Shown one piece after another: positions 1 through 60,101 of a stretch of 64,000 bases of DNA; position 1 is the first letter of the stretch, and each line of letters begins with the position of its first letter. The stretch lies in sequence record MZ956763.1; one strand, written 5' to 3'. Position numbers and translations under genes: made by a program. Source of the stretch: a phage. Under the pieces are notes generated by a model. The model searched no databases, was not told the DNA's origin, and saw nothing but the letters and a program-made list of their open reading frames with translations.

Positions 1-45
1 GTAAAGTTGTCCCTGTTAAGTCTCGTCGTGTTAATTATTGTGAAT
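1..45 (+). pseudogene. 3' fragment of a ligase-like ORF on the plus strand, running in from the window edge (encodes ...KVVPVKSRRVNYCE*)
   Basis: nt 1-30 are the exact reverse complement of nt 264-293 (3' end of ligase CDS); translated peptide matches ligase C-terminus KVVPVKSRR then diverges. Confidence 0.35.
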
Positions 46-293
46 AGTTTTATGAAACAGATGAAAATATGGTTGTTTCTAATATTTAATGTTGAATTTA
101 AAGTTAAATAAATTAATAATACAAGAAATTGTGTTTTATAAGAAAATAAATCTTTTTTAACACCCCCACCCCGCAAACCCCCAGGCGCGGCTTGGTCTGG
201 TGGGCTCGGACATGTTTAAAACACACAGATCATGAGCTTAAAAAAACTCTACCCAATAATTACCACGACGAGACTTAACAGGGACAACTTTAC
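1..293. repeat. 30-bp perfect inverted repeat (1-30 vs 264-293) flanking a GC-rich spacer
   Basis: direct comparison; arm at 1-30 touches window edge so repeat may extend further left. Confidence 0.7.
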
Positions 294-978
294 AGCCATC
301 TCTAAAGTCATTCAATGGTGAAGTCTCAATGATATCTCTACGCTCAGGCCACGTCTTAGTACTGTCACAGATATCATACCAGTAAAACTTGAGTAGGTGT
401 CTGTCAGGATTGTCTTCATTTTTAATCATGGAGACGATATCTTCTAAGTCCCACCCATGAGCATAAATCTCTCCATCAAATTCATCAACATCTTTGTGGA
501 GCCTTAACATTGCCATAATGTCAGGTATTAGTTCAGTAGGGATTTTGTAAACAGTATTCTCACGAGAATATGCTGTAAATACACTGCCAATACTCAAGTG
601 CCTTGAAATCCTACAACGGACACCATCAAGTTTCGGTTGAGCATCAGCAGGGAACTTTAGATACTTTGCATGACTAACCTTTGCAGCATCATGAGCAAGC
701 TGTACACCTATCTTCTCAGTATTCTGTGCAGACTCTTTTGTGTAAGCATAACCTTTGCGGTCAACCTGCTTTTTATACTTTGCAGCAACTTCAAAGAGAG
801 CTTGCTGTTCAGCGTTACGCTCATTCTTTTTACCGATGTTTTTAGGTTCTGCTGTATACTCTTCAAACATCATCTTGCCATTTTCTTTGCCATAGGTTGT
901 AATAACTTTGTCGCCTACAGCAACGCATGACCAGACGTTAAAAGAGCCATCTTTATTTTGTTTGTACAGTATTGTCAT
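238..978 (-). CDS. ATP-dependent DNA ligase (small, single-domain type)
   Basis: ORF 246 aa; adenylation motif I PKLDGVRC (KxDG) present. Confidence 0.8.
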   Translation of the reverse strand: MTILYKQNKDGSFNVWSCVAVGDKVITTYGKENGKMMFEEYTAEPKNIGKKNERNAEQQALFEVAAKYKKQVDRKGYAYTKESAQNTEKIGVQLAHDAAKVSHAKYLKFPADAQPKLDGVRCRISRHLSIGSVFTAYSRENTVYKIPTELIPDIMAMLRLHKDVDEFDGEIYAHGWDLEDIVSMIKNEDNPDRHLLKFYWYDICDSTKTWPERRDIIETSPLNDFRDGCKVVPVKSRRGNYWVEFF

Positions 979-1057
979 TTATTTCTTGCCTCACAAGCTA
1001 TACATCCTTTTGAGTAGAATGAGTGCCAAGCACATCCACCAAAGTCTTCTTCAGTTA

Positions 1058-1306
1058 TTAAATTGAATTTATTGCTTCCATGTGTTTTTCGTAGAAGTCT
1101 AAACATTTTTCATCTTGCTCCTTTATGTAACTCTCATAAAATTCCGGTGATTCTGGTCTTTCGCCAAAGGAAATAACCTTCAGGTAGTACTTCCCATATG
1201 CTGAGCTATCTAACCAAGAATCAAATAGTAATTTCTTAGTGTTAGTCTTTGGAGGGATTACTAAGCTTTTTTCATACAATTCCTTCATTTCTTGAGTTAT
1301 CTTCAT
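1058..1306 (-). CDS. hypothetical protein
   Basis: 82 aa ORF, tightly packed with neighbours on same strand. Confidence 0.45.
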   Translation of the reverse strand: MKITQEMKELYEKSLVIPPKTNTKKLLFDSWLDSSAYGKYYLKVISFGERPESPEFYESYIKEQDEKCLDFYEKHMEAINSI

Positions 1307-1506
1307 TGCATATCCTTAACCTTACCTAAGAACCTTACACCACAGCTATTACACTCATATATGTCTAAATTTGTGTTATCAGGTTTATGAAAACACTTTG
1401 ACCCGCAACGACACCTGAATAGCTTACCATCAACACGAAGAATGAATGTTTCAAGCTCACCATCTTCTGTAAGGACGGCGTTCTTAAACTTATCTTCTAC
1501 AGTCAT
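1303..1506 (-). CDS. hypothetical zinc-ribbon protein
   Basis: 67 aa; CRCGSKC...CNSCG cysteine pairs; start overlaps upstream stop. Confidence 0.45.
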   Translation of the reverse strand: MTVEDKFKNAVLTEDGELETFILRVDGKLFRCRCGSKCFHKPDNTNLDIYECNSCGVRFLGKVKDMQ

Positions 1507-1724
1507 TTTCTCTTACCACCAATCTCTACGTCGATAACCTGAACATCACCAGCAACATCAAACTTATGAATGATGCTTTCCACAGTGTAAGTCCAACCCT
1601 CAATTCGAACCAACTCACCTTCTCGTGGGACGATTGGGTTACGTTGAGCTACGGTTGTAGTGGAGTGAACAACATCATAACAGTAGATATAGTTTACTAG
1701 GACTTCCATCGTAAAAAACCTCAC
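1503..1724 (-). CDS. hypothetical protein
   Basis: 73 aa ORF in operon-like overlap chain. Confidence 0.45.
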   Translation of the reverse strand: MRFFTMEVLVNYIYCYDVVHSTTTVAQRNPIVPREGELVRIEGWTYTVESIIHKFDVAGDVQVIDVEIGGKRK

Positions 1725-1957
1725 TCAATAACCGTAGTGTGTGATTGACTATTTTTACCATAGATATAAGATGTTGTTGTTTGAGAGTTTGGACATCTGA
1801 CAACAACAATATCTGTGCTTATTGCATCCCCATTTAACTTATAGACTTTGCAATCTTGCATCTCTGGTGGGAGACTATAAGAAGCATTCTTATCTTCATA
1901 AGAAGGGTTGCAGCCAGTTAGAAAAATAACACCAAGTGCAATTACTACTTTCCACAT
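1721..1957 (-). CDS. putative lipoprotein
   Basis: 78 aa; N-terminal hydrophobic stretch ending in lipobox-like LTGC. Confidence 0.45.
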   Translation of the reverse strand: MWKVVIALGVIFLTGCNPSYEDKNASYSLPPEMQDCKVYKLNGDAISTDIVVVRCPNSQTTTSYIYGKNSQSHTTVIE

Positions 1958-2145
1958 AACACATCTCCTGTTTTATTGTTCACGATGTTCTACTTCTCTG
2001 TATGTACGCTGGTAGCTTATGATGAGTTGTGCTAATTCGTTGCTTTTAACATCTGAGCGTAGCAGTTGCCAATCAAAACCTTTACCGACTCTCCCATATA
2101 AGCTAAATAGTTTTACTTTGCGTTTCATTTTGGTATCCCCAATAC

Positions 2146-2373
2146 TCAAAGGTCAATACTGATACGTTCACCTTTAAGGACTCCTGTACGGTCTCTTGCA
2201 ATCTTACCATCAATGATAATGATATGCGCAGACATTAAAGAATCACGATTAAAACCTTTTACGAACTTGCTAGGCATCACTACAATAAGCATCTCCTGAA
2301 TCAACTCTGGAGTATAGCAATTGTCGTGAAGTTGCTGGATAACGTCTGCAAGTGTCATTTTTGGTGTCTCCAA
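2146..2373 (-). CDS. hypothetical protein
   Basis: 75 aa ORF. Confidence 0.4.
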   Translation of the reverse strand: METPKMTLADVIQQLHDNCYTPELIQEMLIVVMPSKFVKGFNRDSLMSAHIIIIDGKIARDRTGVLKGERISIDL

Positions 2374-2564
2374 TATTCAATATCAATAAGCTCTTGTGCA
2401 ATGCTTTTCAGGTTACCTTTCAAGAAAACCTTCTCAGAACCTGAAAGAGATGAATTGTCAATTAGTCTGTTCATCCTCTCAAACAACTTCTGCTTACGGT
2501 TCTTGATAGTTTCCTTTGAAGCACCTTTCATCATCGCTGCATGGGTTCTTCCACGGTGGCTCAT
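2355..2564 (-). CDS. hypothetical basic protein
   Basis: 69 aa, Lys/Arg rich. Confidence 0.4.
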   Translation of the reverse strand: MSHRGRTHAAMMKGASKETIKNRKQKLFERMNRLIDNSSLSGSEKVFLKGNLKSIAQELIDIEYWRHQK

Positions 2565-2615
2565 AAGCCCTCCTATATAAGATATTGTATAAGGTACTCT
2601 TCCATGAGCACCTTG

Positions 2616-3143
2616 TCAACTTAGTTTTGCAAACTCTCCGTGGAGTTTCATAGCAGCTTCACAGTAAGCTTTGTGGGCTTCTTCAGGTGTGTCATAAGTA
2701 CCTACATGTATCTTCCTTTTTTTATAGTTAATTTGTGCAATCCATTTCCCTGTTTTCTTCTTCAATGACACCCCTTTGAATCCTGACTTATTGGTTGCTA
2801 ATTTACCCTTATTCCAAGCACTTTGGAAATCATCAACTACCCTCAAGTTAACAATTCTGTTGTCTAAAGAATCACCATTGATATGTTCAATGATACCATC
2901 TGGTAATTCTCCATAGACATACAGCCATGCAAGTCTATGAGCTTTATAGCTTTTCTTGTCAACAAAAATTACTACTTGCTTATGCCCTGTGGAGTCTACT
3001 TGAACACTCCCAGCTACTTTACCTGCGTACCTGCTGTTAAAAACTTTTGACGACCGTGTATTTCCATTTCTGGGTAGCCAAGTAAAGACCCCGCTATCGG
3101 GGTCATAACTGAGTAGCTCCTTTAAACGATTTTCTGTAAGCAT
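2616..3143 (-). CDS. HNH homing endonuclease with AP2-type DNA-binding domain
   Basis: HNH-like region HRLAWL...EHINGDSLDNRIVNLR; C-terminal AP2-like GFKGVS...GKWIAQI...GTYDTPEEAHKAY. Confidence 0.7.
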   Translation of the reverse strand: MLTENRLKELLSYDPDSGVFTWLPRNGNTRSSKVFNSRYAGKVAGSVQVDSTGHKQVVIFVDKKSYKAHRLAWLYVYGELPDGIIEHINGDSLDNRIVNLRVVDDFQSAWNKGKLATNKSGFKGVSLKKKTGKWIAQINYKKRKIHVGTYDTPEEAHKAYCEAAMKLHGEFAKLS

Positions 3144-47261: not shown

Positions 47262-47446
47262 TCAAGGTCAACAAGTCTTTGCAGGACTTTCCCTCTAGGT
47301 GTTACGCCTTTTAAATCTGCATCATAGCAACGGTAAAAGTCACCTTCAGCGTGTTTACCATAGCATTTTCTGATATTCTGGCTTCTACGATACTGTTCTA
47401 ACAGGGAAAGTTTGTAGTAATCTTCAACTGTAGTTAACTTTTTCAT
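47234..47446 (-). CDS. hypothetical protein
   Basis: 70 aa ORF. Confidence 0.35.
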   Translation of the reverse strand: MKKLTTVEDYYKLSLLEQYRRSQNIRKCYGKHAEGDFYRCYDADLKGVTPRGKVLQRLVDLEWNKRLRGV

Positions 47447-47529
47447 TCTTTTACCATGTCTCTTATCTAGAAACTAAAAAGGGAACTACCTCTCGATAGC
47501 TCCCATCATAGTCAATATTGTATACTCGG

Positions 47530-48111
47530 TCAAGAGTATTTTTTAGGCAGTAATGCACTGCGTTTGTTACTCTCTTCACTCAATAGTGCAATGAAGTCAT
47601 CACTTTTACCTTTCCACGGGCTGAATGAAGGGATATGTTCACGGATAGCCTCAATCACTGTTTTAAGTGCTGTGTTCTTCATCCACCAATCAGAATCTGC
47701 TGATGCTACCACGTAGTATCCACCGTCATCAGTTAAAATTGGCTCTGAAATACATGGTGAAATCAAAGTGGTGATAATTGAACCATTGTTCATGTAGTAT
47801 GTACGCTTCATAACCTTTTCAAGAAGCTTGTGAAGGTCACCAAACAGTGTTACAAGTTCTTTGTGGTCGATGTCTTTTTCTAGGCTTGCTCGGTACTTCA
47901 ATAGTGCAGCATCAACCTCTCTGTCATTAAACTTGAAATATTGAACTTCATCAACAAGGCAAACACTGATGTTGTTAACATTCATAGTCAGCTTGCAAAC
48001 TTTTGCAGGAGAGTTGATGCTTGGTTGAAAAAGTGCAACACATCCTTCAATATTTCCAAAGTGTTGTACAAGTGTAACTTGTGGAATGATATCCTGTTGC
48101 TCTTCGGACAT
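47530..48111 (-). CDS. hypothetical protein
   Basis: 193 aa ORF. Confidence 0.5.
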   Translation of the reverse strand: MSEEQQDIIPQVTLVQHFGNIEGCVALFQPSINSPAKVCKLTMNVNNISVCLVDEVQYFKFNDREVDAALLKYRASLEKDIDHKELVTLFGDLHKLLEKVMKRTYYMNNGSIITTLISPCISEPILTDDGGYYVVASADSDWWMKNTALKTVIEAIREHIPSFSPWKGKSDDFIALLSEESNKRSALLPKKYS

Positions 48112-55087: not shown

Positions 55088-55164
55088 CTCTGTTTAGCTC
55101 AGCTTGGTAGAGCGTTCCGTTTGGGGCGGTAAGGCCGGAGGTTCAAGTCCTCCAACAGAGACCA
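55088..55164 (+). tRNA. tRNA-Pro(TGG)
   Basis: manual fold: 7-bp acceptor, D-arm TAGCTCAGCTTGGTAGAGC, anticodon loop TTTGGGG, T-loop TTCAAGT, CCA encoded. Confidence 0.65.
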
Positions 55165-55171
55165 AATTAAT

Positions 55172-55249
55172 GTTCCAGTAGACAAAATGGTAAAGTCACC
55201 ACTCTTTCAAAGTGGATATCTGAGGGTTCAAATCCCTTCTGGAACGCCA
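55172..55249 (+). tRNA. tRNA-Glu(TTC)
   Basis: manual fold: acceptor GTTCCAG/CTGGAAC, anticodon stem CCACT/AGTGG, loop CTTTCAA. Confidence 0.6.
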
Positions 55250-55254
55250 GTTTT

Positions 55255-55330
55255 GACAGAAGACCAATTACAGCAAACTTAATCTTATTCATCTGAAGGT
55301 AAATCGGACAAAGAAGAGATTTGGTCTGGT
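55255..55330 (+). ncRNA. stem-loop element A of a 5-member family
   Basis: 5' CAGAAGACCAATTACAGCAA pairs with 3' TTGGTCTGG; between tRNA-Glu and tRNA-Met. Confidence 0.4.
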
Positions 55331-55340
55331 CATTAAGAAT

Positions 55341-55417
55341 TGCGGGTATAGAGAAAGGGCGTCTCACATGTCTCATTAGCATGGTATCGGCAGGTTCGAC
55401 TCCTGCACCCGCCTCCA
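55341..55417 (+). tRNA. tRNA-Met(CAT), possibly initiator (1-72 mismatch)
   Basis: anticodon stem CATGT/GCATG, loop CTCATTA; T-arm GCAGG-TTCGACT-CCTGC; position 1 unpaired. Confidence 0.5.
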
Positions 55418-55420
55418 AAT

Positions 55421-55488
55421 TTACAGAAGACCGTTTACAGCAATATTTATTAAATTTTTAGCGGAAAAATTGAAAGATACGGTCTGGT
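55421..55488 (+). ncRNA. stem-loop element B
   Basis: 5' CAGAAGACCGTTTACAGCAA, 3' ACGGTCTGG; internal hairpin AATTTTTAGCGGAAAAATT. Confidence 0.4.
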
Positions 55489-55500
55489 AATACTAAACAT

Positions 55501-55577
55501 GGTTAGGAAGCACATAAGGTATGTGCGGTCGCCTGTTAAGCGAATGGCACAGGGTTCGAATCCCTGACTAACCGCCA
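55501..55577 (+). tRNA. tRNA-Asn(GTT)
   Basis: D-stem GCAC/GTGC, anticodon loop CTGTTAA, T-loop TTCGAAT. Confidence 0.65.
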
Positions 55578-55646
55578 AATTTAGGAGAGAAGCGATTGCT
55601 CACCGATTTGTAAGGTGCAAGTCCTTAGCCTGAATAGAAATTAAAT

Positions 55647-55734
55647 GTGTCGTTATCCCGTAGATGGTAGCGGTGGGGACTGTAAATCCCTTGTCATTGA
55701 GACTCGGTAGGTTCGACTCCTACACGGCACACCA
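55647..55734 (+). tRNA. tRNA-Tyr(GTA), long variable arm
   Basis: 88 nt; anticodon stem GGGGA/TCCCT, loop CTGTAAA; acceptor GTGTCGT/ACGGCAC. Confidence 0.55.
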
Positions 55735-55739
55735 ATAAA

Positions 55740-55817
55740 GGCTATGTAGTTTAATAGGGTTAAAATACTCCCCTGTCACGGGAGATGATGTGAGTTCAAG
55801 TCTCATCGTAGCCGCCA
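55740..55817 (+). tRNA. tRNA-Asp(GTC)
   Basis: acceptor GGCTATG/CGTAGCC, anticodon stem CTCCC/GGGAG, loop CTGTCAC. Confidence 0.65.
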
Positions 55818-55902
55818 AATTATAATAAGTATTTCAAAATGATGTTTTGAGAGGGCTATTTAGCCCCTCCCTTAAAGAGTTCTTACGAGTATTCTTTAAA
55901 GG

Positions 55903-55979
55903 AGCAGAAGACCAAATACAGCAAGTTACTTAAAATTTCAAGCCAATTTAATTTTGAAAAATTTAAAACTTGGTCTGGC
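55903..55979 (+). ncRNA. stem-loop element C
   Basis: 5' CAGAAGACCAAATACAGCAA, 3' TTGGTCTGG. Confidence 0.4.
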
Positions 55980-55988
55980 TCAACAAAT

Positions 55989-56123
55989 TTACAGAAGACC
56001 GTTTACAGCAAAACTTAAACAATCTATTTCTCGGTAAAGAAAAGGAGAAGGTTCGATTCCTTCACTCGGCAGATGTCGAGTTGGTGTAATGGTAGCACTT
56101 AAGATGGTAAACAACGGTCTGGT
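55989..56123 (+). ncRNA. Y-RNA-like (YrlA-type) tRNA-mimic element D
   Basis: terminal stem AGACCGTT/AACGGTCT encloses T-arm-like GAAGG-TTCGATT-CCTTC, acceptor-like hairpin ACTCGGC-AGAT-GTCGAGT and D-arm-like GTG-TAATGGTAG-CAC, i.e. tRNA modules in permuted order with no anticodon arm. Confidence 0.45.
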
Positions 56124-56271
56124 AATTATCTTTGTAGATAAGTTATTAAGCTTACCTGTGAGTATGCGACCACAAAGGGTGAAAGGGTAAATTCTAGATT
56201 TAAACCCAAAAAGGCACATCGCTACAGACCTTAAGCAAGTCTGGGTAGCTTATCTACAAAGATAATTTAAT

Positions 56272-56347
56272 GGAAGTGTAGCAGAATGGTGATGCGGCAG
56301 ACTTTTAATCTGACAGGCGATGGGTTCGAATCCCTCCACTTCTACCA
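56272..56347 (+). tRNA. tRNA-Lys(TTT)
   Basis: anticodon loop CTTTTAA; acceptor GGAAGTG/CACTTCT; weak T-stem. Confidence 0.55.
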
Positions 56348-56351
56348 AAAT

Positions 56352-56428
56352 GGTTCAGTCGCAGATAAGGTAATGCAAGGGTTTCATAAGCCCTATGAAT
56401 GTGGGTTCGATTCCCATCTGAACCTCCA
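56352..56428 (+). tRNA. tRNA-Met or Ile2 (CAT)
   Basis: acceptor GGTTCAG/CTGAACC; anticodon stem AGGGT/GCCCT, loop TTCATAA. Confidence 0.55.
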
Positions 56429-56430
56429 AT

Positions 56431-56505
56431 TGTGGGTTAGCATAAATGGTAATGCAAACGGCTGATAACCGTTAGAAGAGGGTTCGATACCCTCACCTAC
56501 AACCA
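56431..56505 (+). tRNA. tRNA-Ile(GAT)
   Basis: anticodon stem AACGG/CCGTT, loop CTGATAA; T-arm GAGGG-TTCGATA-CCCTC. Confidence 0.6.
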
Positions 56506-56520
56506 ATTTCAATAGAGTTG

Positions 56521-56549
56521 TTGACATTGAGATGTGACTACTTTATAGT
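56521..56549 (+). promoter_or_regulatory. sigma70-like promoter inside tRNA cluster
   Basis: TTGACA, 17 bp, TATAGT. Confidence 0.55.
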
Positions 56550-56842
56550 AACTAAAATACTTCACAATATGTATAATTCAAACACCAATACATGAGCGTT
56601 AGACGTAACACAATGTGGGGAAATTTGTTGTACATATTCTGAATAGTTTTCGTTGCGTAGCGTCTATTTTGCAAATTTAAAATAAATGCAAACGACAATG
56701 TTTTTCTGGCAGTAGCTTGATAGGCTAAACACCAGTGAGGTCTTCCAATCCCTCATCAAAGAATTTGGCGTACTCGCCCACGGTATGATTAATAAGGTGG
56801 GCATCTTTAAGGGCTTTCTAAGAGAGTCTTTAAAGATAATTA

Positions 56843-56924
56843 CGGGGCGTATCTCAGCGGTCTTCTAAACCGCCGTTAACCGAGTAAGTGGAGTATGCGG
56901 GTTCGAGTCCTGCCGCCTCGACCA
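56843..56924 (+). tRNA. atypical tRNA-like gene, possibly tRNA-Arg(TCT)
   Basis: good acceptor (CGGGGCG/CGCCTCG), T-arm and a perfect hairpin GCGGT-CTTCTAA-ACCGC, but no canonical D-arm and a 23-nt region before the T-arm. Confidence 0.3.
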
Positions 56925-57067
56925 ATTTAGTTAGCAGATTACTTAGACGACCTAAGCGGGTCTTCCTGTAGGGAGGTGGTCTGTATCTCATGTTTTCCAG
57001 AACATGTAAATAATCTGAGAAGGGGCTTTACAGTGTTGAGATAATACGGTAAGCTTCGAATTATAGT

Positions 57068-57150
57068 GTGGGACGATGTTAAGACTCTAAGGCATGAGCA
57101 ACGGCCTCCAAAACCGTTTCAAAGGGGTTCAACTCCTCCGTCCCATGCCA
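57068..57150 (+). tRNA. atypical tRNA-like gene, possibly tRNA-Trp(CCA)
   Basis: acceptor GTGGGAC/GTCCCAT, T-loop TTCAACT, anticodon-like loop CTCCAAA on stem ACGG/CCGT; D region about 7-8 nt too long. Confidence 0.3.
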
Positions 57151-57163
57151 AAGTCTTATTAGG

Positions 57164-57251
57164 GGTAGGTAGCGGCTAATGGCAGCCAAACAGTCTTGAA
57201 AACTGTTGCCACTGTAGAGATACGGTGAGGGTTCGACTCCTTTACTTACCG
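57164..57251 (+). tRNA. tRNA-Ser(TGA), long variable arm
   Basis: anticodon stem ACAGT/ACTGT, loop CTTGAAA; D-loop TAATGGCA; CCA not encoded. Confidence 0.55.
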
Positions 57252-57407
57252 CCTAATAAGATTTAAAGCCAAGCTTCATTCGGATGTCGCTTTGGTATCC
57301 CGCGTGTATTGTCGTACACACTGATAAAACACCTAGTAGGTGTCACGGAGAAGAGATAATATCAAGCTCTCCAAAGGTTCTAGTCACCGGATTAAACAAG
57401 ACTATGC

Positions 57408-57429
57408 AAAGACCTTTTTAGGTCTTTTT
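57408..57429 (+). terminator. intrinsic terminator inside tRNA cluster
   Basis: AAGACCTTTTTAGGTCTTTTT. Confidence 0.5.
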
Positions 57430-57508
57430 AGAGGGCTTCTAAGGTTATTACAGCTTGTTGTGGAACCTTGTTGCTTAGGTTCTTAGAAGTTCTCTAAAAA
57501 GATTTAAT

Positions 57509-57586
57509 GGGAGATTGACGGTAATTGGTAAACCTACCATCCTTAGAAGTTGGTGTTTGAGGGTTCGAATCCCTTGTCTCCTACCA
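57509..57586 (+). tRNA. tRNA-Leu(TAG), short variable loop
   Basis: anticodon loop CTTAGAA; A73 discriminator; T-arm GAGGG-TTCGAAT-CCCTT. Confidence 0.5.
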
Positions 57587-57593
57587 AATTAAT

Positions 57594-57669
57594 GCAGGTG
57601 TAGCAAAATGGTTATGCGGCTGACTCTTAATCAGTAAGACGATGGGTTCAATTCCCTCCACCTGTACCA
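57594..57669 (+). tRNA. tRNA-Lys(CTT)
   Basis: same scaffold as tRNA-Lys(TTT); anticodon loop CTCTTAA. Confidence 0.55.
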
Positions 57670-57675
57670 GACATT

Positions 57676-57751
57676 GGGGTCATAGTTTATATGGTTAAAA
57701 TTCGAGTTTTGCAAACTTGGGAACTGAGTTCAATTCTCAGTGACTCCACCA
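57676..57751 (+). tRNA. tRNA-Ala(TGC)
   Basis: anticodon loop TTTGCAA; T-arm CTGAG-TTCAATT-CTCAG. Confidence 0.6.
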
Positions 57752-57757
57752 ATTAGT

Positions 57758-57832
57758 GCATCCATAGTTTAAACGGGAAAATTACAGTCTTCCAAACTGA
57801 GGTTGAGGGTTCGATTCCCTCTGGATGCTCCA
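57758..57832 (+). tRNA. tRNA-Gly(TCC)
   Basis: perfect acceptor GCATCCA/TGGATGC; anticodon loop CTTCCAA. Confidence 0.6.
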
Positions 57833-57839
57833 AATTAAT

Positions 57840-57915
57840 GCTCCTATCGTATAATAGGCTATTACGGTTGCCTTGTAAGCAACTTATCAGGGTTCGAATC
57901 CTTGTGGGAGCACCA
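57840..57915 (+). tRNA. tRNA-Thr(TGT)
   Basis: anticodon stem GTTGC/GCAAC, loop CTTGTAA. Confidence 0.65.
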
Positions 57916-57916
57916 A

Positions 57917-58006
57917 TTCAGAGGTCAAGTGAAAGACCGCTGGTGTCAACTGAAGACCGTAACAAATTCCACGGAGTTGAGTTAGCGGCACAACTTCAGA
58001 CCTCTT
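57917..58006 (+). ncRNA. stem-loop element E (related to A-D)
   Basis: outer stem AGAGGTC/GACCTCT; contains GAAGACCGTAACAAA resembling the family 5' motif. Confidence 0.3.
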
Positions 58007-58010
58007 TCAC

Positions 58011-58085
58011 ACTCGCTTAGTTTATATGGTAAAACACCACCCTTACAAGATGAAGAAAAAGGTTCAAGTCCTTTAGTGAGTACCA
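58011..58085 (+). tRNA. tRNA-Val(TAC)
   Basis: acceptor ACTCGCT/AGTGAGT, D-stem GTTT/AAAC, T-arm AAAGG-TTCAAGT-CCTTT, anticodon loop CTTACAA on a weak stem. Confidence 0.45.
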
Positions 58086-58086
58086 T

Positions 58087-58164
58087 GTTCCAGTATCCCA
58101 ATTGGCAGAGGATGCAAGCTCAAACCTTGTATTAGTGACGGTTCGAATCCGTCTTGGAACACCA
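58087..58164 (+). tRNA. tRNA-Leu(CAA), short variable loop
   Basis: Leu-like D-loop CAATTGGCAGA; anticodon loop CTCAAAC; A73. Confidence 0.5.
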
Positions 58165-58183
58165 ATTTTAAGAGGCTATTTAG

Positions 58184-58741
58184 ATGAGATATTTGAAGTA
58201 TGCTTCATGGATTTTCCTAGCTTTACTAGAGCCATTTGCAGCAACCCTATCAGTCATCTTAGCACCTTTCGTAGTTCCATTCTACAGTGAGAAGAAAGGA
58301 CACCTACCTTTTGGATTCAGATGGATGGAGACCTATGACAACCCAATTGATGGTGATGAAGGTCACGTTAAAAGATGGGCTAAGATTAGAAAGATTGGTA
58401 AGCTGGGTGTCTACATGCAGAGAGTTGGATGGCTCTGGAGAAACAAAGCTTATAACTTCTCTTACCATGTATTAGGAAGAGATGTAAAAGATGTTACTAA
58501 GTGGAAAGGTAATATCAACGTAAGTTCTGACCCTGAAGATAATCAGACAGGTTATCTCCTAATGTGGAACAACAATGCTTGGGGATTATTCGCTTTTATT
58601 CCGTCAATTAAAATCTTTGGTAAACAGTTTTACTGGAGAATTTATGTTGGATGGAAACTAAAAAGTGTTGTCCCAGAAGAAAGAGCATTCTCAAGGGAAA
58701 GAGTTATGTTGGCATTCTTTATTCATCCACTGAGAAAGTAA
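58184..58741 (+). CDS. hypothetical membrane protein embedded in tRNA cluster
   Basis: 185 aa ORF starting just after a tRNA; N-terminal hydrophobic segment. Confidence 0.5.
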   Translation: MRYLKYASWIFLALLEPFAATLSVILAPFVVPFYSEKKGHLPFGFRWMETYDNPIDGDEGHVKRWAKIRKIGKLGVYMQRVGWLWRNKAYNFSYHVLGRDVKDVTKWKGNINVSSDPEDNQTGYLLMWNNNAWGLFAFIPSIKIFGKQFYWRIYVGWKLKSVVPEERAFSRERVMLAFFIHPLRK

Positions 58742-58749
58742 AGATTTAA

Positions 58750-58825
58750 AGGGGATTAGTTTACAAGGTTAAAACCTCGGTCTTTGAAATCGAAGAAGTT
58801 GGTTCAATTCCAACATCCCCAGCCA
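58750..58825 (+). tRNA. tRNA-Gln(TTG)
   Basis: D-stem GTTT/AAAC; anticodon loop CTTTGAA; T-arm GTTGG-TTCAATT-CCAAC. Confidence 0.55.
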
Positions 58826-58827
58826 AT

Positions 58828-58906
58828 GCTCCATTACTCCAATTGGCAGAGAGGCCAGACTTAAAATCTGTGTTATGTATCGGTTCGAATCCGATATGGA
58901 GTACCA
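58828..58906 (+). tRNA. tRNA-Leu(TAA), short variable loop
   Basis: D-arm CTC-CAATTGGCAGA-GAG; anticodon loop CTTAAAA; A73. Confidence 0.5.
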
Positions 58907-58911
58907 ATTTT

Positions 58912-58987
58912 AGCGGTATAGCATAATTGGCAATGCAACAGTCTCTGAAGCTGTCCTATTAAGGTTCAAATCCTTATACCGCTGCCA
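58912..58987 (+). tRNA. tRNA-Gln(CTG)
   Basis: perfect acceptor AGCGGTA/TACCGCT; anticodon loop CTCTGAA. Confidence 0.6.
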
Positions 58988-59018
58988 CTTCTAAGGGTTC
59001 TTACGAGAGTCCTTAAAT

Positions 59019-59094
59019 GTGGCCTTATCATAAATGGTAATGACCCATGCTGTGAACATGGTCTATACGGGTTCAAATCCCGTAGGTCACCCCA
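59019..59094 (+). tRNA. tRNA-His(GTG)
   Basis: anticodon stem CCATG/CATGG, loop CTGTGAA; C73 discriminator. Confidence 0.65.
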
Positions 59095-59099
59095 ATTTA

Positions 59100-59177
59100 T
59101 AGTCCAAGTAGCTTATATGGTTAAAGCGCGTGTCTGAAAAACATGAGAAGAGGGTTCAAATCCCACTGGACTACCAA
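59100..59177 (+). tRNA. tRNA-Phe(GAA)
   Basis: perfect acceptor TAGTCCA/TGGACTA; anticodon stem CGTGT/ACATG, loop CTGAAAA; 3' end reads CAA. Confidence 0.5.
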
Positions 59178-59192
59178 TTTCAAAGGTGCTTA

Positions 59193-59927
59193 ATGAAAGA
59201 GATGACAGAACAAGGTAAGGAGATTTTTAATCTCTTAAAAACCGGTAAAGGGTTTTCTAACCCACTTATTACTGGTGCAGCAGTTCTCGGTGGAACCGTA
59301 GCTGCCTCTACATCACTTGTAAGCTCTATTAGCTCTGTAACAGACCCTACAATGAATGAGAAACTTGTTGCTGCTGGACTTACAACAGTCCTTCTAAACA
59401 GCTTTACAACAAGCCTGACAAGCACTACAGCAACTACTAAGACCCTAACAGACTATGGTCAAAAGTCTATTGATGAGTTTTCATCACGTATGCAGGTAGC
59501 AAAGGGATACTCCAATGTTATGGGTGCAGCAGGAGAACAAGTTGGTTGTACACCGTTCAGTGGTATTATGGGTGTTGCTACAGAATATGGTCAAAAAGCT
59601 ATTGATACGATTAACAGTACACTAGAGAGTGTTAACGATGTATTAAGTGACTTACAAGACGCTATTGACAAGGGTCTTGATACTGTTTCTGATTTAGCTA
59701 ACCAAGCTGTCAGTAAGATTAATGAAGGTATCTCAAAGATTACAGCTTATGCAGATGAAGTTGTGCAGATGATTGAAGAAGAAGCTGCCCTTATTGCAGA
59801 GTACCTTAAAACGAATATCAATGGGTTCTTAGCAGGTATCTTACCAGACTGGTTTGATGATGCTTGTAAAACTGGTGTGATTGACACTATTGCAACACCA
59901 GAAATGAAGAACGCATTACAGAAATAA
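59193..59927 (+). CDS. hypothetical Ser/Thr-rich protein
   Basis: start set at ATG after tRNA-Phe (MKEMTEQ); track ORF start 59130 would overlap the tRNA. Confidence 0.5.
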   Translation: MKEMTEQGKEIFNLLKTGKGFSNPLITGAAVLGGTVAASTSLVSSISSVTDPTMNEKLVAAGLTTVLLNSFTTSLTSTTATTKTLTDYGQKSIDEFSSRMQVAKGYSNVMGAAGEQVGCTPFSGIMGVATEYGQKAIDTINSTLESVNDVLSDLQDAIDKGLDTVSDLANQAVSKINEGISKITAYADEVVQMIEEEAALIAEYLKTNINGFLAGILPDWFDDACKTGVIDTIATPEMKNALQK

Positions 59928-59928
59928 T

Positions 59929-60021
59929 GGAAGATTAACCCTAAAAGGTAAGGGAGCAGTTTGCTAAACTGCCAGTAGCTGAGAAATCGGTGTACCAGTT
60001 CAAGTCTGGTATCTTCCTCCA
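59929..60021 (+). tRNA. tRNA-Ser(GCT), long variable arm
   Basis: 93 nt; anticodon stem GCAGT/ACTGC, loop TTGCTAA; T-arm ACCAG-TTCAAGT-CTGGT. Confidence 0.6.
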
Positions 60022-60025
60022 ATTT

Positions 60026-60101
60026 GAATCCGTGACAGAAATGGCTATGTGCCTGTCTGCAAAACAGGTTTATAAGGGTTCGAGTCCCTTCGGATTCTCC
60101 A
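60026..60101 (+). tRNA. tRNA-Cys(GCA)
   Basis: anticodon stem CCTGT/ACAGG, loop CTGCAAA; U73 discriminator. Confidence 0.65.

Follow-up and report, generated by a model that had tools for sequence, protein, structure and literature searches.

An adapter and error-laden read copies very probably underlie an apparent inverted ligase copy at one end of a contig from a Felix O1-like phage

Results

The inverted ligase repeat at the window edge is almost certainly an assembly artefact

The first 263 nt of the window, by which we mean the whole 64,000-nt stretch of phage DNA analysed here, are almost certainly an assembly artefact formed at the contig end of a Felix O1-like phage whose sequencing library was of the Illumina Nextera (Tn5 tagmentation) type. 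Nucleotides 195–228 are a Nextera adapter, and on either side of it nucleotides 229–263 and 31–161 are error-laden, read-like copies of one segment of the phage DNA ligase gene, lying on opposite strands. This arrangement of arm, adapter and arm is absent elsewhere. We infer that trustworthy genome sequence ends at about nt 715 of the ligase gene, at window position 264. A preliminary description of this edge, made from the letters alone, had offered four explanations for it. Three were biological (a tail-to-tail ligase paralog or pseudogene, the scar of a rearrangement, or an element that forms a long hairpin), and the fourth, the only one to survive, was an artefact of assembly at a genome end. 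The three biological options are contradicted by the adapter between the arms, the in-register decay of the copies, their essentially transversion-only mismatches, and the absence of the arrangement in ~140 relatives and in a near-identical independent contig.

The observation that drew attention to this edge was correct: nucleotides 1–30 are the perfect reverse complement of nucleotides 264–293, with both arms reading GTAAAGTTGTCCCTGTTAAGTCTCGTCGTG. A repeat search extended the inverted repeat to 1–64 and 230–293 (64 nt, 86% identity), and the probability of a perfect 30-nt inverted repeat inside 300 nt is far too low for coincidence. The plus strand entering the window does encode the ligase peptide KVVPVKSRR, followed by VNYCE and a stop codon. 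The repeated segment had been labelled the 3' end of the ligase, which is wrong; it corresponds to nt 686–715 of a gene that is 1104 nt long in all relatives, and therefore lies in the middle of the ligase rather than at its 3' end. A ligase copy is indeed present on the plus strand, but it is not confined to the 30 nt first assigned to it, as the BLAST match spans window positions 1–109 at 76% identity and the copy stays in register to position 161. Folded as single-stranded DNA, nucleotides 1–293 give a z-score of -9.7 relative to shuffled sequences. This stability is a consequence of the inverted repeat and so is not an independent sign of function.

The ligase gene is intact in relatives and cut short in the window

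We assign the window to a Felix O1-like phage (Felixounavirus): nucleotides 220–3000 have matches in 259 phage records, and the far end of the window is ordinary terminase/portal sequence at 98% identity. In relatives the ligase gene encodes a phage ATP-dependent DNA ligase of 367 amino acids, compared with only 246 amino acids for the window open reading frame (238–978, minus strand). Nucleotides 264–978 (minus strand) are genuine ligase sequence, comprising nt 1–715 or the 5' two-thirds of the gene with its KLDG motif, at 95–97% identity to relatives, and the right arm of the inverted repeat (264–293) falls within this genuine sequence. The stop codon of the shortened frame, TAA at 238–240, sits in the corrupted stretch at a place where the canonical gene has GAA, so the 246-amino-acid 'ligase' is artificially truncated; the real gene runs ~390 nt further, beyond the window. 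A Pfam search with the 246-amino-acid frame gave no match, nor did exact-protein look-ups with the truncated ligase and the polymerase.

BLAST with the ligase of phage DE17 aligned gene nt 1–759 to window positions 978→220 (95%) and gene nt 686–794 to window positions 1→109 on the opposite strand (76%), and found no counterpart of nt 795–1104 in the 64 kb. Also absent from the window are the genes that lie beyond the ligase in relatives, as far as those for DHFR and thymidylate synthase (TS). With both the ligase remainder and the DHFR/TS block missing, nothing has been relocated within the window. Among the 141 phage records that match window positions 1–109, each contains the segment once, inside an intact ligase gene, and none carries an inverted copy.

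PQ818761.1 (Escherichia phage EcoM2; match at record positions 50–158) starts inside the ligase at about nt 843, and is another assembly linearised in this gene. Two records labelled as Campylobacter phages, MG065664.1 (A132) and MG065668.1 (A126), match window positions 220–2997 at 87.6% identity, and the ligase segment of window positions 1–109 is matched at 76% by GU169904.1 (Staphylococcus phage SA1), which suggests that the A132/A126 and SA1 records are mislabelled, contaminated or chimeric. Elsewhere in the window, a 175-amino-acid HNH/AP2-type homing endonuclease gene (2616–3143, minus strand) lies between the polymerase and a block of small genes; it is present in pSJ21 and L004 and missing from DE17 and CL1, a typical presence/absence polymorphism, and the pSJ21 DNA polymerase is annotated as two coding sequences beside it. 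A cluster of 24 tRNA genes occupies positions 55088–60101 (plus strand), as expected in Felix O1-like phages.

The GC-rich island contains a Nextera adapter

An unusually GC-rich stretch had been reported between the arms, and the base composition bears this out, with 75.5% GC in positions 161–209 and 62% in positions 151–200 versus 38.8% across the window. The core of this island is the Nextera adapter. Read on the minus strand from 228 to 195, the sequence is CTGTGTGTTTTAAACATGTCCGAGCCCACCAGAC, which matches the Illumina Nextera read-1 read-through adapter (mosaic end plus i7 side), CTGTCTCTTATACACATCTCCGAGCCCACGAGAC, at 28/34 positions without gaps. None of the other ~128,000 positions on both strands of the window matches this adapter better than 21/34, and a 28/34 match would be expected by chance about 3e-7 times. 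Exactly this 34-mer is the sequence trimmed from read 1 of Nextera libraries (PMC3906532). The synthetic adapter consists of CTGTCTCTTATACACATCT followed by CCGAGCCCACGAGAC, and its purely synthetic i7-side part is matched at 14 of 15 positions; because these 15 nt have no natural Tn5 counterpart, the sequence derives from a synthetic oligonucleotide and not from a natural transposon end.

The spacing around the adapter is compatible with the layout of a Nextera library molecule. The adapter begins at nucleotide 228, immediately after ligase nt 750 (window position 229), where homology to the canonical gene ends, and it points outward, toward the left window edge on the minus strand. Beyond it on the same strand, the i7 index slot holds 8 nt (CAAGCCGC; 187–194) and the P7 slot a 24-nt G-rich stretch (163–186). 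The index slot agrees with TAAGGCGA, the index found in the record of phage Lambda_ev058, at 5/8 positions and is too corrupted to assign. The P7 slot agrees with P7, ATCTCGTATGCCGTCTTCTGCTTG, at 7/24 positions and is not recognisable as P7; 16 of its 24 bases are G, and we read it as the collapsed tail of the same sequencing read. The 34-nt adapter is thus the one part positively identified among adapter, index and P7. The P7 slot is followed by an A-run, TTAAAAAAG, the sequence there being TGTTAAAAAAG. Counted as insert, 34-nt adapter, 8 nt and 24 nt, the layout ends at nucleotide 163, and the significant ligase match of the plus arm ends at 161, so that a plus-strand piece (1–161) and a minus-strand piece (293→163) abut.

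Searches of other kinds gave no alternative identity for this stretch. Nowhere in the window did the TruSeq adapters, the Nextera read-2 adapter, or P5 and P7 match better than background. Nucleotides 110–229 matched none of the phage records searched, and the island matched none of 5,426 E. coli genomes, against which a host origin was tested. No second occurrence turned up when IMG/VR, GTDB genomes and JGI metagenomes were scanned for exact matches. An Rfam scan of nucleotides 1–1200 (E≤10) yielded sub-threshold noise only; there were no tRNA genes near the region and no terminator-like sites, and the one promoter-like site was weak, with fewer such sites than in shuffled sequences. The fold of the island or spacer was no better than that of shuffles on either strand.

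These results bear on the idea that the edge preserves a real rearrangement scar or a hairpin or cruciform element, be it the breakpoint of an inversion, a palindromic terminus (or telomere) or a segment invertible through its 30-bp inverted repeats. A genuine terminus or invertible segment of that kind would combine a natural spacer with a conserved repeat and its own protelomerase or invertase. A perfect 30-nt repeat flanking a 233-nt spacer, with the very stable single-stranded fold noted above (z = -9.7), is what such an element might look like. Yet the spacer consists of adapter and degraded ligase sequence and on its own folds no better than shuffles, the repeat is not conserved in relatives, the region gives no Rfam, tRNA or terminator signal, and neither ligase nt 847–1104 nor the DHFR/TS block has been relocated anywhere in the 64 kb. 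We give this explanation almost no credence.

The arms carry sequencing-error-like mismatches

We compared both arms with the canonical ligase position by position. The plus arm begins with a perfect copy of ligase nt 686–715 in the orientation opposite to the gene (nucleotides 1–30, the left repeat arm), and continues as a degraded but ungapped and in-register copy of ligase nt 716–846 (31–161). Matches number 29–30/30 over nt 686–715 and then 22/30, 32/50 and 25/51 up to nt 846, all three later values exceeding the 99th percentile of shuffles (15, 22 and 22, respectively). Identity therefore falls steadily, from 100% through 73% and 64% to 49%, and beyond window position 161 (ligase nt 846) it is random (11/59). 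No insertion or deletion relative to the canonical ligase occurs over positions 1–161, and the composition drifts to 85% A+T along nucleotides 31–161. The minus arm turns unreliable at the same place in the gene: nucleotides 229–263 (minus strand) are an error-laden version of ligase nt 716–750, directly preceding the adapter.

The spectrum of these mismatches differs from that of natural divergence. The plus arm has 52 mismatches, of which a single one is a transition; the 51 transversions include 16 G>T, 13 C>A, 12 T>A and 6 A>T changes. All 9 mismatches in the minus arm (229–263) are transversions, and so are all 6 in the adapter. Natural divergence, as seen in ligase nt 1–715 versus DE17, amounts to 24 transitions and 4 transversions, and summed over four relatives to 107 transitions and 16 transversions. 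For the arms and adapter together the ratio is 1:66, against 24:4 for DE17 (Fisher p = 2.5e-17). The arm mismatches are thus sequencing-error-like and do not look evolutionary.

The dominant changes, G>T and C>A, correspond to the G/T and A/C channel-crosstalk pairs. In Illumina reads the A and C channels and the G and T channels are correlated, and G is miscalled as T from about cycle 25, with A and C miscalled as T later (Kircher et al., 2009; PMC2745764). Late-cycle errors of that kind share with the window arms that they are substitutions only, that register is kept, that their density rises along the read and that calls drift toward T. Unlike the published description, the window has frequent T>A changes (12/52) and a P7 slot drifting to G, and since the chemistry described by Kircher et al. 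is older than a Nextera-era run, the parallel is qualitative only. We also considered sequence-specific dephasing (Nakamura et al., 2011) as a reason why errors set in at nt 716 in both pieces, and set it aside because, as judged by eye, the miscalls do not consistently repeat the preceding reference base.

The same comparison speaks to a pair of real ligase genes or pseudogenes arranged tail to tail, with a diverged plus-strand copy entering from the left and both copies truncated. Window positions 1–109 are homologous to the ligase and inverted, and short reading frames on both strands end soon after KVVPVKSRR, as such a pair would have it. Natural divergence between two gene copies would show transitions at least as often as transversions, occasional indels and no positional gradient. 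But a synthetic adapter lies between the copies, and they diverge by 1 transition to 60 transversions, without indels and in a monotonic in-register decay, versus the natural 24:4. No second copy occurs in any of 141 relatives, and the nearest independent contig, described next, runs on canonically. We regard a tail-to-tail pair as exceedingly improbable.

An independent contig continues canonically past the point of failure

The nearest independent contig is a 2750-nt Logan contig (SRR15330241_919, hereafter L006) that is 100% identical to the window from position 3007 down to position 264. Over its full overlap (3007 to 258) identity is 99.93%, with only two mismatches, both in its last 6 nt. 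Those last six bases are canonical (GTGTAAATT) where the window arms read GTGGTAATT and GTGTTAATT. The exact 67-amino-acid protein encoded at window positions 1303–1506 is on record from no sample other than that of L006, whose phage is therefore the same as, or nearly identical to, that of the window; SRR15330241 is a candidate for the run behind the window. L006 breaks at ligase nt 721, and at its other end inside the HNH/AP2 endonuclease gene.

The position of this break raises the possibility that the terminal sequence is artefactual while the break itself, at ligase nt ~716–722, is real: a DNA end or terminal-repeat boundary, a polymorphic insertion (for example of a homing-endonuclease gene), or a mixture of two related phages diverging at this point. 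L006 stops at most 6 nt from where the window turns unreliable, and a real break would, if true, explain why the window and L006 both stop within 6 nt; moreover, PQ818761.1 also starts inside the ligase gene, and homing endonuclease genes are polymorphic in this part of Felixounavirus genomes. Against this, L006 belongs to a fragmented assembly, is short (2.75 kb) and is broken at its other end too, and more than 250 relatives assemble straight through the position. If L006 came from the same read set, the same bad reads would produce the same graph branch, and the agreement between the two contigs would not be independent. We consider a real break at this site unlikely, and favor an artefactual contig end.

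Adapter read-through at contig ends has precedents in public records

The intact 34-nt Nextera adapter is found in 43 GenBank phage records and at least 120 IMG/VR contigs. In IMG/VR, 123 of 124 intact copies among the matches listed lie within 100 nt of the locus end and point outward, an orientation also seen in most listed of the 43 GenBank records. The window shares with this typical Nextera read-through contamination that the 34-mer directly follows genuine insert, lies near the edge and points outward. It differs in that its copy is corrupted (28/34) and that a second read-like piece lies beyond the adapter. Adapter screens of public submissions exist and are meant to remove such contig-end sequence; with only 28/34 positions matching, exact-match or high-stringency screens would miss the copy in the window.

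A closer parallel is the end of LR597651.1 (Escherichia phage Lambda_ev058; record positions 47327–47678), which reads insert, adapter, the index TAAGGCGA, P7 and A10, then ~190 nt of other sequence, and then T12 followed by reverse-complemented P7, index and adapter. A partial coding sequence is annotated over this adapter junk. The structure of this record demonstrates that tail-to-tail joins of adapter-bearing reads at an A-run reach public records. In both cases an adapter-bearing read continues into an A-run, where a second read of opposite orientation is attached. The Lambda_ev058 reads, however, are clean, each with its adapter, index and P7 intact, and the second of them originates elsewhere, whereas both window pieces are of low quality and derive from the same ligase segment, creating a palindrome-like inverted repeat.

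Copies of the adapter also occur deep inside several records described as complete genomes, among them MK327937.1 (110018–110051), MK327945.1 (123962–123995), MK327946.1 (76726–76759), MK373781.1 (146327–146360), MT584805.1 (107552–107585) and MH973725.1 (6673–6706). Some of these internal copies lie under annotated coding sequences, including 'hypothetical protein' and 'baseplate hub subunit and tail lysozyme'.

Discussion

We propose that the contig was extended past window position 264 by a single low-quality, short-insert read that would have run, on the minus strand, through ligase nt 716–750, then the adapter and the slots for index and P7. Abutting it at nucleotides 161–163 would be another read-like piece, also of low quality but of opposite orientation, which starts with ligase nt 686–715 and decays up to nt 846. 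The inverted repeat arises because both pieces start with the same true ligase sequence on opposite strands. On this model the GC-rich island would be the sum of adapter, index slot and P7 slot, and the AT-rich stretch would reflect base-calling drift toward T and A.

The tail-to-tail join was probably made in the assembler, and we can envision two routes. The pieces may have been joined through the A/T low-complexity run TTAAAAAAG after the P7 slot, or the assembler may have followed a hairpin-shaped path through a bidirected de Bruijn graph. With k=31, k-1 would be 30, the length in nt of the perfect arm, which is suggestive only. Two features of the region count against an assembly artefact. 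The P7 slot is G-rich and unrecognisable and the index slot matches a known index at only 5/8 positions, and the adapter sits 195–228 nt from the window edge, whereas in typical cases it lies within 80 nt. The greater distance is accounted for by the second read-like piece attached beyond the adapter, but this means that an extra event, the join to a second read, must be assumed.

The true gene is presumably the usual intact ligase of 367 amino acids, cut by the linearisation point of the contig. On that view the source record would start at window nucleotide 1, and its other end would probably hold the 3' part of the ligase that is absent here.

The relevance of this finding is one of data hygiene rather than biology: about 263 nt at the edge of a phage sequence are adapter and miscalled bases. 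Such an artefact mimics an inverted repeat and a GC island, and it shortens the ligase to a false 246 amino acids where the real protein has 367. Anyone scanning for palindromes, telomeres, pseudogenes or GC islands that look 'novel' can be led astray by such ends, as happened here. We are highly confident that the inverted ligase copy and the GC island at nucleotides 1–263 are not a real feature of the phage. We recommend trimming nucleotides 1–263 and regarding the ligase as a full-length gene that the contig end interrupts.
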